Counted from the stretch's first letter, positions 41,352 through 48,017 are shown. The stretch is 64,000 nt of DNA from Thermoanaerobaculia bacterium (GCA_035644215.1 DASQPA010000125.1:1472-65471), one strand, 5' to 3'. The notes: generated from the letters alone by a model not told the origin. Translations and numbers: made by a program.

Positions 41352-41879
41352 ATGCGCAGCTCCCACGATGTTACCAGTGTCCCCGCCCCACCCCTCGACA
41401 ACGCCTTCGCCCCTGCCTACCTGGCCCGCCTGCGCGAGCAGGACGACGTCCTGACCGCCGCCGAGGCCGAGCTTGCCGGTCCCTGGAAGATCGAGCCTGT
41501 CCCCGGCAAACCGGGAGCGGTCGCCATTCTTCGTCTGTGGGAGGACCTGGCAATCGGCGATGCTCCCGTCGCCGTCCTCTGGCACCTGGAGACGGCGCGA
41601 CTTCTCTCCGTGCTCCTCCCGGTGCTCGACCGTGAGCCGCTCTTCTATATAGAGGAAGGGGCGGCTTCGGAGGGCTACCCCCTGGTCGCGGTGTTCGGCG
41701 AGCAGGGTCCCCAGGTCGCCGGCTGGCTCGACCGCCACGAGCCGCGGTGGTCCGAGGGACTCCACCTGCTGGAGGCGATCGTCCGCTCGCCTCTCGCCCT
41801 CGCCACCCTGCTCGAAGCGGCCGGGCCGGGCGCCGAGGAGCAGGTCGGGCGCATCCGTGCTCGGCGGCAACGAGCGTAA
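41352..41879 (+). CDS. hypothetical protein
   Basis: 175-aa ORF with GAGGAGG 6 nt upstream and protein-like composition. No recognisable domain. Confidence 0.5.
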   Translation: MRSSHDVTSVPAPPLDNAFAPAYLARLREQDDVLTAAEAELAGPWKIEPVPGKPGAVAILRLWEDLAIGDAPVAVLWHLETARLLSVLLPVLDREPLFYIEEGAASEGYPLVAVFGEQGPQVAGWLDRHEPRWSEGLHLLEAIVRSPLALATLLEAAGPGAEEQVGRIRARRQRA

Positions 41880-42121
41880 GGTCGCTGGAAGCGATTCGAG
41901 AAACAGGGGCGGCGCTCCAAACGCCGCCCCATCGCATTCCTGGCAAGTTGCAGACGGCGGAAGCCGTTCCGCAACCGTCGCGGACATCGCCGCAGCCCCC
42001 GAGAACCCTCCCGCAGTGACCGCCGAACCCTCCAGGATCCTTGGGAAGCCTGATTTCGCGCCCGCGGAGCCCGGCGCGAGCGTCGCGGAGCGCGCCGAGC
42101 GGCCGGAGAGTCGTCCCCAGG

Positions 42122-42426
42122 GCTTCGGGAACGATGGGGAAGACTCCCCTCAAATTGGGGAAGCGTCGCCTGATTTTGGGGAAGGGCTGCCCAATTTCGG
42201 GGGAGTGTTCCCCAATTTCGGGGAACCGCTCCCCGAAGTTGGGGAAGAGTTCCCCAAGATTGGGGAAGTGTTCCCCGAAATCGGGGAGGTCTTCCCCAAT
42301 TTCGGGGAGAGGCTGCCCAATTTGGGGGAAGGCTTCCCTCAAATTGGGGAAGCGTCGCCCAATTTCGGGGAACCCTTCCCCGATTTGGGGGGAGACTTCC
42401 CCAATTTCGGGGGAGGTTTCCCCCGG
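42122..42426. repeat. tandem array, about 15 copies of a 21-nt unit (consensus sTTCCCCAATTTCGGGGAAGn)
   Basis: Read directly. Each unit is a TTCCCC-N6-GGGGAA inverted repeat. The array is intergenic, about 145 nt upstream of the 42572 gene. Confidence 0.9.
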
Positions 42427-42571
42427 CTCGCGGCGACACTCCAGCGGTGGGGGTGGACCGGCAAGCATCCGGCGTCCCTCGGAACCGCCCGCCGACGGTA
42501 GCACAGCCGGTGCCGTCCGGTGCCGACCCCTTATATAGTATTGGGCAGGTCCATCCCGGCGACAGGAGAGA

Positions 42572-45283: not shown

Positions 45284-45354
45284 TCTAACTCCGCGTCGAG
45301 TCGGCTAAGCTACGCCCTCAACGCTCTCGACCAGGAGCGCCGCGAGGATATGCC

Positions 45355-46683
45355 ATGACCGAACCGAATTCGAATCGTCCCTGGCGCCCGCTGTTGACCG
45401 GCGAGGCGGCCCGGGCGGCGAACGCCGCCGTCGACGCCATCGCGGCGGGGATCGCCGCCCACCCGGCGGCTGCCGCCATCCGTCCGGAAGCGGGCGGCGG
45501 ACACTTCTCCCTGGCCGGCGGCCAGGCCGGCCTCGCCCTCTTCTTCTCCTACCTCCATTTCGCCCGTCCCGACGGTGGGCACGACGAAACCGCCATGGGT
45601 TTCCTCGAACAGGCGATCGAGGGCACCGGCGAGATGGCGGTCAGCGCCGGCCTCTACAGCGGCTTCGCCGGCGTCGCCTGGACCCTGGAGCACCTCCTGG
45701 GGCGGCTCTTCGATCCCGACGGCGAGGACCCCGGCGAGGAGATCGCGACGGCGCTCCAGGGCCTCCTCGCGCGCTCTCCCTGGCAGGGCGACTACGACCT
45801 CATCAGCGGCCTCGTGGGATTCGGGGCCTACGCCCTGGAGCGGCTGCCGCGGCCGGGCGGCCGGGAGTGCCTGGAGCAGATCGTCGCCCGCCTGTCCGAG
45901 ACCGCCGAGCCGGGGGCGGCCGGGATCACCTGGCACACGCCGCCCGAGCGGGTGGGGCCGGTCCAGGCCGAGCAGTTCCCCGCCGGCTACTACAACCTCG
46001 GGGTGGCCCACGGCGTGCCGGGGGTGATCGCCCTCCTCGGCGAGGCGGAGGTCGCCGGGCTGGCGGCGGAGGTGGCCGCCGAGGCACGCCGGCTGCGGCA
46101 GGGCGCCGCGGCCTGGATCGCCACCCAGCAGCTCCCCCCCGGGGCCCCTTCGCTCTTCCCCTACAACACCGCCCCCGGCATCCCCCCCAGCCCCTCTCGC
46201 CTCGCCTGGTGCTACGGCGACCTCGGGATCGCGGCGGCGCTCCTCGCCGCCGCCCGCACCGTCGCCGACCCCGGCCTGGAGGCGACAGCCCGGACCGTCG
46301 CCGGGCACGCCGCGGCCCGCCCGGCCGAGGGCGCCGGGGTGGTCGACGCCGGCCTCTGCCACGGCGCCGCCGGGGTGGCCCACCTCTTCAACCGCCTCTA
46401 CCAGGCGAGCGGCGAGGCCGCCGTGGGCGAGGCCGCCCGCAGCTGGTTCGAGCGCGCCCTCGCCCTCCGCGGGCCGGAGGGGATCGGCGGCTTCCGCGCC
46501 TGGCTTCCCCAGGGGAACGACGGGATGAGCGGCGAGCTCGGCTGGGCGGACGACCCCGGCTTCCTCACCGGCTCGGCCGGCATCGGCCTCGCCCTCCTGG
46601 CCGCCACGACCCCGGTCGAGCCCAACTGGGACCGCGTCCTCCTTACCGCCATCCGCGGCGCCTCGGGCCGCAGGGAGCCCTGA
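45355..46683 (+). CDS. lanthionine synthetase C-like (LanC-like) protein 1, standalone
   Basis: Carries the GLYSGFAGVAW, WCYGDLGI and GLCHGAAGVAHLF motifs (LanC Zn-ligand and active-site signatures). Confidence 0.85.
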   Translation: MTEPNSNRPWRPLLTGEAARAANAAVDAIAAGIAAHPAAAAIRPEAGGGHFSLAGGQAGLALFFSYLHFARPDGGHDETAMGFLEQAIEGTGEMAVSAGLYSGFAGVAWTLEHLLGRLFDPDGEDPGEEIATALQGLLARSPWQGDYDLISGLVGFGAYALERLPRPGGRECLEQIVARLSETAEPGAAGITWHTPPERVGPVQAEQFPAGYYNLGVAHGVPGVIALLGEAEVAGLAAEVAAEARRLRQGAAAWIATQQLPPGAPSLFPYNTAPGIPPSPSRLAWCYGDLGIAAALLAAARTVADPGLEATARTVAGHAAARPAEGAGVVDAGLCHGAAGVAHLFNRLYQASGEAAVGEAARSWFERALALRGPEGIGGFRAWLPQGNDGMSGELGWADDPGFLTGSAGIGLALLAATTPVEPNWDRVLLTAIRGASGRREP

Positions 46684-48017
46684 TGCCCACTCCGCCCGAC
46701 CCGGCCTGGAGCCCGCTCCTCGCAGGCGACGCCGCCAGCGCCGCCGCGGCCGCCGTCGACGCCATCGCCGCCGGCCTCCAGGTTTTCGCCGAAGAGCCCC
46801 CGGGCGGGCCCTCGGGCGGCAGCGGCCGGGACCTCTCGCTCGCCGGTGGCCAGGCCGGCATCGCCCTCTTCTTCTCCTATCTCCACTTCGCCCGGCCCGG
46901 AGAGGGGCACGACGACACCGCCATGACCTTCCTCGAACGGGCGATCGAGGGCACCTCCGAGCTGCCGGTGGGCTCCGGGCTCTACGGCGGCTTTCCCGGC
47001 GTTGCCTGGACCCTGGAGCACCTCGCCGGGCGCCTCTTCGATCCCGAGGGGGAGGACCCGGGGGAGGAGATCGCGACCGTCCTCGCGGAGTTCCTCGCGC
47101 GTTCCCCCTGGCAGGGCGACTACGACCTGATCAGCGGCCTGGTGGGCTTCGCGGTCTACGCCCTCGAACGGCTGCCGCGGCCGGGCGGCCGGGAGTGCCT
47201 GGAGGGGGCCATCGCCCGCCTCGCCGAGACCGCCCAGGCCATGGGGGCGGGGCCGAAGCCGGAGGAGCTGCTCTCCTGGCACACCCCTTCGGAGCGGGTG
47301 GGGGCGCTCCAGGCGGCCACCTACCCCGAGGGGCACTACAACCTGGGCGTCGCCCACGGCGTGCCGGCGGTGATCGGCGTCCTCGGCGAGGCCCTGGCGG
47401 CCGGCGTGGCGGAGCCGGAGGCCCGCCGTCTGCTCGACGGCGCCGCCGGCTGGGTCCTCGCCCAGCGCCTGCCCGCGGGCGCCGACTCGCTCTTCCCCTA
47501 CAATACCGCCCCCGGCATCGCGCCCAACCCCACCCGCCTGGCCTGGTGCTACGGCGACCTCGGGATCGCGGCGTCCCTACTCGCCGCCGCCCGGACCGCC
47601 GGCGACCCGCGCCTGGAGGCGGAGGCCCTGGCCATCGCCCGGCACGCCGCGGAGCGGGCCATCGCCGGCTCGGGAGTGCAGGACTGCGGCCTCTGCCATG
47701 GCGCCGCCGGGGTGGCGCACCTGTTCAACCGCCTCTACCAGGCGACCGGCGAGCCGGCTCTCGGCGCCGCCGCCCGGACCTGGTACGACCAGGCGCTCGC
47801 CCGGCGGGGGACGGCGGGGATCGGCGGCTACCAGGCCTGGCTCCCGTCGAGCGCCGACCGGATGGGCGATCTCGCCTGGATGGACGATCCCGGCTTCCTC
47901 ACCGGCTCGGCGGGGATCGGCCTCGCCCTCCTGGCCGCCACCAGCGCGGTCGAACCGGGGTGGGACCGCGTTCTGCTCACCGCGATCCAGGGCAGCGCTC
48001 CAATGCATAGAAAGTAA
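46683..48017 (+). CDS. LanC-like protein 2, a tandem paralogue
   Basis: Its ATG overlaps the LanC-1 TGA (TGATG). It is about 80% identical to LanC-1 with long identical nucleotide runs. The ORF track merged it into a wrong-frame 45867 ORF. Confidence 0.85.
   Translation: MPTPPDPAWSPLLAGDAASAAAAAVDAIAAGLQVFAEEPPGGPSGGSGRDLSLAGGQAGIALFFSYLHFARPGEGHDDTAMTFLERAIEGTSELPVGSGLYGGFPGVAWTLEHLAGRLFDPEGEDPGEEIATVLAEFLARSPWQGDYDLISGLVGFAVYALERLPRPGGRECLEGAIARLAETAQAMGAGPKPEELLSWHTPSERVGALQAATYPEGHYNLGVAHGVPAVIGVLGEALAAGVAEPEARRLLDGAAGWVLAQRLPAGADSLFPYNTAPGIAPNPTRLAWCYGDLGIAASLLAAARTAGDPRLEAEALAIARHAAERAIAGSGVQDCGLCHGAAGVAHLFNRLYQATGEPALGAAARTWYDQALARRGTAGIGGYQAWLPSSADRMGDLAWMDDPGFLTGSAGIGLALLAATSAVEPGWDRVLLTAIQGSAPMHRK

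Follow-up and report, generated by a model that had tools for sequence, protein, structure and literature searches.

Cargo proteins of extracellular contractile injection systems (eCIS), such as EAT14 of Chitinophaga rupis and Cgo1 and Cgo2 of AlgoCIS, join a disordered leader to a variable C-terminal enzymatic effector. The DUF4157 domain (eCIS_core, PF13699) is a marker of eCIS toxins (PMC8213781), and EAT14, in which it is joined to a transglutaminase-like cysteine enzyme, is a validated toxin of this kind (PMC11297309). Among the eCIS-associated toxins (EATs) of the training set in that study, 88% were encoded no more than 10 genes from an eCIS operon (PMC11297309). The domain is optional in EATs, not universal (PMC11297309; bioRxiv 10.64898/2026.05.27.728243), and for AlgoCIS loading the disordered N-terminal domain is needed and DUF4157 is dispensable (bioRxiv 10.64898/2026.05.27.728243). 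In the present study, a stretch of 64,000 nucleotides from a Thermoanaerobaculia bacterium (GCA_035644215.1, DASQPA010000125.1:1472-65471; hereafter "the window") was analyzed, with emphasis on positions 41352-48017, where a gene with a cargo-like leader (gene B) lies beside two tandem genes for LanC-like proteins (D and E). With a probability of roughly 0.65, we take these to be two unrelated neighbors, namely an orphan effector of the eCIS-cargo type (B) and a conserved orphan LanC cluster, with the roles proposed below.

The product of gene B resembles eCIS cargo in its combination of a disordered leader with a C-terminal enzymatic domain, and homologues of B carry eCIS_core and are found inside eCIS loci. 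It differs from that cargo in having neither eCIS_core nor HExxH, and in having no eCIS gene nearby in the 64 kb analyzed. The catalytic domains also differ: that of B is of the Tgl type (PF20085, Cys-Glu dyad), whereas that of EAT14 is Transglut_prok (PF09017, Cys-His-Asp). The proteins encoded by D and E are like NisC and MadC in their alpha,alpha-toroid LanC signature, with zinc ligands Cys/Cys-His, the acid/base His, an Arg and a Tyr. In contrast to class I clusters, the neighborhoods in five genomes yielded no LanB, LanA, LanT or LanP; D and E are, furthermore, tandem duplicates, and they share their cluster with genes for a sigma54 two-component system and for two proteins, one HEAT-like and the other outer-membrane-like. 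As stand-alone LanC folds with conserved zinc ligands and without a dedicated dehydratase, D and E also resemble the glutathione-adding eukaryotic enzymes LanCL1/2; they are distinguished from these by a Tyr instead of a His after the first zinc-ligand Cys, and their similarity to them is far weaker than that to bacterial LanC. The four genes are as follows.

Gene B, 42572-43978, plus strand: 468 aa; leader, helical linker and predicted Tgl-type transglutaminase domain
Gene C, 44000-45283, minus strand: 427 aa; cysteine-free, all-alpha HEAT-like solenoid
Gene D, 45355-46683, plus strand: 442 aa; predicted class-I-type LanC-like cyclase (Pfam LANC_like, 2.4e-31)
Gene E, 46683-48017, plus strand: 444 aa; tandem LanC-like paralogue (Pfam LANC_like, 4.4e-36)

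The chromosome has a GC content of ca. 70%, at which raw lists of open reading frames (ORFs) were full of shadow frames. A filter on the GC content of codon positions (GC3 for the third) was applied, leaving one gene per locus. By this frame analysis and ORF listing, all genes in 41352-48017 are real. The true start of gene E is the ATG at 46683, which overlaps the stop codon (TGA) of D by 1 nt.

A Pfam scan covered about 35 window proteins, and the window was also searched by tblastn, for which the queries were three LanB proteins of Thermoanaerobaculia and 13 proteins encoded in two eCIS loci. The tblastn searches returned short, chance-level matches only; one of these, a 54-aa LanB match (E 0.002) in the spacer between genes A and B, was judged to be chance. 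No eCIS or type VI secretion structural gene (sheath, tube, baseplate, spike, Pvc15/16) was detected by either approach in the 64-kb window, as a first description made from the DNA alone (the sequence-only reading) had stated. That description had also listed dehydratase, kinase-lyase and transporter genes as missing. The first two parts hold, in that neither LanB nor LanM nor a kinase-lyase was detected by Pfam around the LanC genes, and tblastn likewise gave no LanB; as to the third, a MacB/FtsX-type permease (2168-4633), the sole transporter-type gene seen in the window, lies ca. 40 kb from the LanC genes. Searches of PADLOC and PHROGs gave no match for genes A-F.

Gene B as a candidate injected effector

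The leader of B contains LQRTVGNQAVQRRL at residues 38-51 and no HExxH is present, which agrees with the LQRxxGNxAVxRxL motif originally reported. The protein was divided into a disordered leader (residues 1-67), a helical linker domain (ca. 80-170) and a Tgl-type transglutaminase domain (ca. 185-468). An AlphaFold2 model calculated from the family alignment had a mean predicted local-distance difference test score (pLDDT) of 87, with values above 90 over residues 80-468. The N-terminus was disordered in this model: pLDDT stayed under 50 at residues 1-38 and 50-67, and the motif was covered only by a helix of low confidence.

The C-terminal domain, which the sequence-only reading had described as unrecognizable, was matched by Pfam TGL (PF20085, protein-glutamine gamma-glutamyltransferase) with 24.5 bits against a gathering score of 23.7 (E 1.9e-5). 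Foldseek paired the model with Bacillus subtilis Tgl (4p8i) and the Geobacillus transglutaminase (7c9j) at a probability of 1.00. A profile of the B family matched 7c9j with an E-value of 1e-19, aligning YAFEC to Tgl Glu115-Cys116 and GENxIYLG to Tgl Glu187. In Tgl, the catalytic dyad is Cys116-Glu187, with Glu115 as a back-up (PMC6490927); these residues are kept in gene B as E297-C298 and E394. Across the family, C298 is invariant, E394 is found in 38 of 39 members, and all 39 have either E or D at position 297. The domain is thus predicted, from alignment and model alike, to be a Bacillus Tgl-type transglutaminase fold with an NlpC/P60-like core.

The resemblance to Bacillus and Geobacillus Tgl (4p8i, 7c9j) is limited to ca. 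20% identity, and B has the leader and the helical domain in addition. The hosts differ as well: B belongs to an Acidobacteriota lineage, whereas those of Tgl are endospore-forming Firmicutes. Finally, B is without the His of the GH motif that follows the GEN strand in Tgl. Residues 406-407, Gly-His in the Bacillus and Geobacillus enzymes, are Ala-Phe in B and in its closest homologue, P0002, while His occupies position 407 in 32 of 39 family members. This substitution could alter or abolish activity, or change substrate handling, in the subclade of B and P0002.

The family is rare; an exhaustive HMMER search of 1.84 billion representative proteins yielded 49 relatives, and a genome scan with a profile from 12 family sequences located only two loci, one of them already known. 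Pfam TGL was matched by 36 of the 39 aligned members (best E 3e-25), and an N-terminal eCIS_core domain by 18 of the 39 (best E 5e-63). Of the 49 relatives, 10 carry the LQRxxGNxAVxR leader motif, located at positions 33-78, and five of these 10 also have HExxH; none was found in shuffled N-termini, giving 0 expected by chance. Two family members with long contigs were returned on look-up, and both lie inside eCIS loci. The gene for P0140, from a Myxococcaceae metagenome-assembled genome (MAG), is followed at a distance of ca. 1 kb by sheath, tube, baseplate and spike genes, and that for P0143 is located between a Pvc16_N/AAA ATPase gene and genes for a second eCIS_core protein, CIS_tube and spike. 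The earlier association of the leader motif with DUF4157 and eCIS-type effectors is borne out by the counts of eCIS_core and motif and by these two loci. No paper on Tgl-type (PF20085) domains as eCIS effectors was found in the literature.

Since its leader is shared with eCIS_core homologues and other members are encoded in eCIS loci, gene B looks like an orphan effector of the eCIS-cargo type that is devoid of the optional DUF4157 domain and is located away from eCIS genes in the window. As proposed here, the leader would target B for loading into a contractile injection particle whose genes are located in another part of the genome. In the target cell, Cys298 would form a gamma-glutamyl thioester with a protein glutamine, which would be resolved either by a lysine, giving a cross-link, or by water, giving deamidation; hydrolysis of a peptide bond would be an alternative. 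Target proteins would be inactivated as the outcome.

A further member of the family, with both eCIS_core and TGL, is encoded in a deltaproteobacterial MAG (L015, 9335-20758), where it adjoins genes for a 968-aa SH3-repeat protein and CHAT-PNP_UDP_1 proteins; these neighbors look like conflict-system genes.

The LanC genes and their conserved cluster

The presence of two LanC-like enzymes in tandem was corroborated by the Pfam matches given above and by 72% mutual identity. Both proteins retain DYDLISG, AHG, WCYG and CHG. The best match of E in the PDB was the class I cyclase MadC (8byk, E 5e-17), with LanCL1 reaching only 1e-5 to 1e-6, and the motifs of D and E align to MadC Arg294, Cys298, Cys344, His345 and His228, i.e. 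the zinc ligands Cys/Cys-His, the acid/base His and the Arg. The Tyr after the first zinc-ligand Cys (WCYG) is of the bacterial cyclase type; eukaryotic LanCLs have WCHG (PMC9934072). The catalytic motifs are kept in all nine copies of the D/E clade from five genomes, except that the Asp motif, DYD[LVI]xxG, was unmatched in the single copy of one relative (L003).

In a neighbor-joining tree, the D/E-type copies of the five genomes formed one clade, apart from copies linked to LanB. Because first and second copies were partly grouped by position, the tree suggests that the duplication is old and that both copies have been maintained. The next LanC relatives (55-58% identity), which form the sister clade, have a full-length LanB as neighbor in all four loci examined (L007-L010). 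This weighs against the sequence-only proposal of a single four-gene module, as the nearest outgroup of the LanC genes does cluster with conventional LanB. By motif and tree, D and E are predicted to be intact class-I-type cyclases of a LanB-linked lineage that are now separated from LanB. The gaps between C and D (71 bp) and between E and F (26 bp) are too short for a precursor peptide; one may be encoded elsewhere in the genome. Tentatively, D and E would still add thiols to dehydroalanine or dehydrobutyrine in peptides dehydrated by a LanB encoded elsewhere, and C might serve as a non-enzymatic, HEAT-like scaffold or partner of the two.

In the LanB-linked loci, which are from other Thermoanaerobaculia, the LanC-LanB pair is found between chorismate synthase and RNase II, a housekeeping-like setting of high conservation (L007, 10001-16909; equivalent in L008-L010). 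LanB is 83-86% identical across these loci, where no obvious precursor was noted, and in L007 a stand-alone eCIS_core gene of 164 aa is located two genes from LanB. No similarity was detected between C and the proteins of 403-541 aa, of no assigned family, encoded in the LanB-linked loci.

Genes C, D and E belong to a longer cluster, whose remaining members are listed here.

Gene F, 48044-50104, plus strand: 686 aa; outer-membrane-protein-like (Pfam CarboxypepD_reg, 5e-10)
GAF-PAS histidine kinase gene, 50368-53283, plus strand (Pfam)
Sigma54-dependent response regulator gene, 53280-54662, plus strand (Pfam)
Secreted M14 carboxypeptidase gene, 54677-57379, plus strand (Pfam)

Gene C, whose divergent orientation relative to the LanC genes had been noted correctly before, is separated by 71 bp from D, and on its other side by 21 bp from B, with which it is convergent. 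Homologues of C numbered 12, at 62-69% identity. Long contigs of four relatives (L003-L006) show C divergently arranged with either one or two LanC genes; downstream of these come F and the genes for the histidine kinase, the sigma54 regulator and the M14 peptidase, and the genes past the 3' end of C vary by genome. Gene F follows the LanC genes in all relatives, and its orthologues in L003-L006 have 70-76% identity. Thus, C, D, E and F are part of a lineage-conserved cluster in which C is divergent from LanC(-LanC)-F-kinase-regulator-M14. The product of F has a hydrophobic, signal-peptide-like N-terminus and ends in AVKF. As F starts 26 bp after E, a D-E-F operon is likely. A metagenome scan with C returned three loci, two of them with distant relatives (35-37% identity) that have no LanC neighbor.

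The spacer between F and the histidine kinase gene in L003-L006 (e.g. L006, 13586-13968) contains a conserved TGGCAyAGAAGATGCT with the spacing GG-N10-GC, resembling a sigma54 -24/-12 promoter. A second conserved block (CGCTTGGATTCA...TCCGGTTTT.TGGAT) is located upstream of the kinase gene in the same relatives and is also present at ca. 50300-50360 of the window.

Two neighbors or one module

Gene B lies at a synteny breakpoint beside the unrelated, lineage-conserved LanC cluster and is not functionally connected with C, D or E. Neither A (an upstream gene described in the next section) nor B is present in L003-L006, four relatives in which the syntenic genes C, LanC (one or two copies), F, the kinase, the regulator and M14 are all kept. 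The closest homologue of B, P0002 (52% identity over 84% of its length, with leader motif and FEC motif kept), is encoded in locus L001 among genes for a BlaR1-type peptidase, a beta-lactamase, a methyltransferase and an amidohydrolase, with no LanC. Only one other contig, L002 from a metagenome, has the arrangement of the window, and it is 99-100% identical to it; therefore, it represents the same population and is not independent evidence. The module reading, in which B, C, D and E (optionally A as well) would work as a single novel unit, the LanC proteins modifying the leader-tagged protein or its product, or B and C being a toxin-immunity pair, draws on the adjacency of the genes, on the 21 bp between the convergent B and C, and on the recurrence in L002. 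We regard it as very improbable. Beyond L002, no co-occurrence of the four genes was found, an outcome that the sequence-only reading had itself named as refuting; the four relatives keep C and LanC without A and B; the 52% homologue has other neighbors; and B-family members elsewhere are located in eCIS loci, none of them with LanC. Gene C encodes no Cys and is conserved without B, and is thus neither a lanthionine acceptor nor the immunity protein of B, a role for which it was rejected in view of its convergent orientation and its conservation where B is absent. PADLOC likewise returned no match for such a module.

Several observations weigh against the assignment of B to injected cargo. Its own Pfam TGL score is barely over the threshold; no eCIS_core match was obtained in it even at E <= 10; it is outside any eCIS neighborhood in the window; no eCIS gene was found near its homologues in L015 (+/-10 kb), in the 6-kb L001 or in the 3-kb L011; and the family-conserved His407 has been lost from B and P0002. 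Some of these, namely the lack of eCIS_core and of eCIS genes in the window, the non-eCIS contexts of the L001 and L015 homologues and the missing His, would be accommodated if B acted on its own envelope or matrix as a transglutaminase or peptidase, cell-autonomous or secreted, or if it were the remnant of a decaying effector. Characterized Tgl enzymes are, moreover, structural cross-linkers, as in spore coats (PMC6490927). Decay is opposed by the GC3 of 0.96, the intact ORF, the 52% identity to P0002 and the retained dyad, all of which point to purifying selection. A role in the producing cell is opposed by retention of a disordered leader with the eCIS_core-associated motif, by the fact that no Sec-type hydrophobic signal is evident at the N-terminus, and by the two family members inside eCIS operons; the dispensability of DUF4157 for AlgoCIS loading takes weight from its absence in B. 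Hence, a non-injected B is considered unlikely, and injected cargo is retained as the preferred assignment.

With respect to the LanC cluster, the reading as class-I-type cyclases served by a distant LanB is burdened by the finding that no LanB, precursor or transporter gene is present within +/-10 kb of the D/E-type LanC genes in the five genomes, and that no conserved small Cys-containing ORF was found in intergenic spacers, including that between F and the kinase gene, of five loci. The association of C with LanC, in turn, was seen among close relatives (60-70% identity) only and may be plain synteny. As the main alternative, D and E together with C and F could work independently of LanB. 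They would attach a thiol, supplied by a small molecule or by a Cys of a protein, to dehydroamino acids arising in proteins, in analogy to C-glutathionylation by eukaryotic LanCLs, and could have a part in envelope or stress functions controlled by the neighboring sigma54 two-component system. The retention of the cluster in five genomes without those partner genes would fit such a system, as would the preserved catalytic residues of both tandem copies after an old duplication; large genome surveys leave LanC-like genes without a neighboring dehydratase unclassified (bioRxiv 10.1101/2020.03.13.990614). The cyclase Tyr (WCYG) in place of the LanCL His, the far better match to MadC than to LanCL1 (5e-17 vs. 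1e-5 to 1e-6) and the LanB-linked sister clade speak for the lanthipeptide lineage instead, and conservation among close relatives may reflect synteny only. LanB-independent action is accordingly doubtful in our judgment. The more specific form, a sigma54-controlled thia-Michael system that acts on proteins or envelope peptides and would be a prokaryotic counterpart of LanCL and not a lanthipeptide pathway, is held to be decidedly unlikely.

The upstream segment and the wider significance

The preferred reading, two unrelated neighbors, leaves the DNA upstream of B to be described. Its features are as follows.

BrnA-like antitoxin gene, 40465-40716, minus strand (Pfam BrnA_antitoxin, 1.6e-12)
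HicB/ribbon-helix-helix-like antitoxin gene, 40805-41041, minus strand (Pfam HicB, 1.3e-8)
CopG-like antitoxin gene, 41038-41229, minus strand (Pfam CopG_antitoxin, 2e-7)
Gene A, 41352-41879, plus strand: 175 aa; GC3 0.82, no family detected
Repeat array, 42135-42423, no strand: 14 tandem 21-bp units, non-coding

The antitoxin-like genes and gene A are preceded by TamB and BamA (Pfam). The three antitoxin-like genes (40465-41229), for which no toxin partners are recognizable, lie in the spacer (61% GC) that separates BamA from gene A; they mark a variable segment. The segment with these genes, gene A, the array and B has a GC content of 61-67%, as opposed to 76-77% for C-E. The remainder of the window is ordinary chromosome, with genes for tRNA synthetases, IF3, RNase Y and glycosyltransferases.

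Gene A is 692 bp upstream of B. No Pfam, NCBIfam, PADLOC or PHROGs family and no PDB or plasmid match was found for it, tblastn gave no homologue in L001-L010, and none stands beside the relative of B in L001. A role for A as the immunity protein or partner of B was rejected, there being no homologue in any fetched locus, the PDB or plasmids, and a link between the two genes is not demonstrable. A perfect 11-bp GC-rich inverted repeat (41906-41930; a GGGGCGGCGCT...AGCGCCGCCCC-like hairpin) is located 27 bp past the stop codon of A and is terminator-like only when read on the minus strand.

The array, overlooked in the sequence-only reading, precedes B by ca. 150 bp and has no second copy in the window. 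Tandem Repeats Finder reported a period of 21 with 13.8 copies; every unit has the form TTGGGGAAG-nnn-CTTCCCCAA, an imperfect palindrome. The array had a fold z-score of -12.7 and showed no codon (GC3) bias; an ORF across it (41857-42501) was ruled out as a gene for lack of that bias. A search of Rfam across 40300-48100, which includes the array, gave no match above threshold. Contig L002, from the same species, breaks off within the array. The period, equal to two helical turns, suggests a phased array of candidate protein-binding sites.

Gene B is thus placed, on the basis of its predicted fold and leader, as Tgl-type transglutaminase-like cargo of a known effector kind, and the LanC pair as apparent orphans of a known family; neither finding overturns current understanding. 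For injected effectors, it is indicated that the LQRxxGNxAVxR leader can flag eCIS-type cargo even without a DUF4157 domain or a nearby eCIS operon, and that the Bacillus Tgl-type fold, with its Cys-Glu dyad, joins the candidate injected effector domains. This may be of use in effector mining and in the engineering of programmable injection systems. For the LanC family, D and E would represent a Thermoanaerobaculia clade of intact, tandem class-I-type cyclases, and they offer a testable case for the function of orphan bacterial LanC-like proteins.

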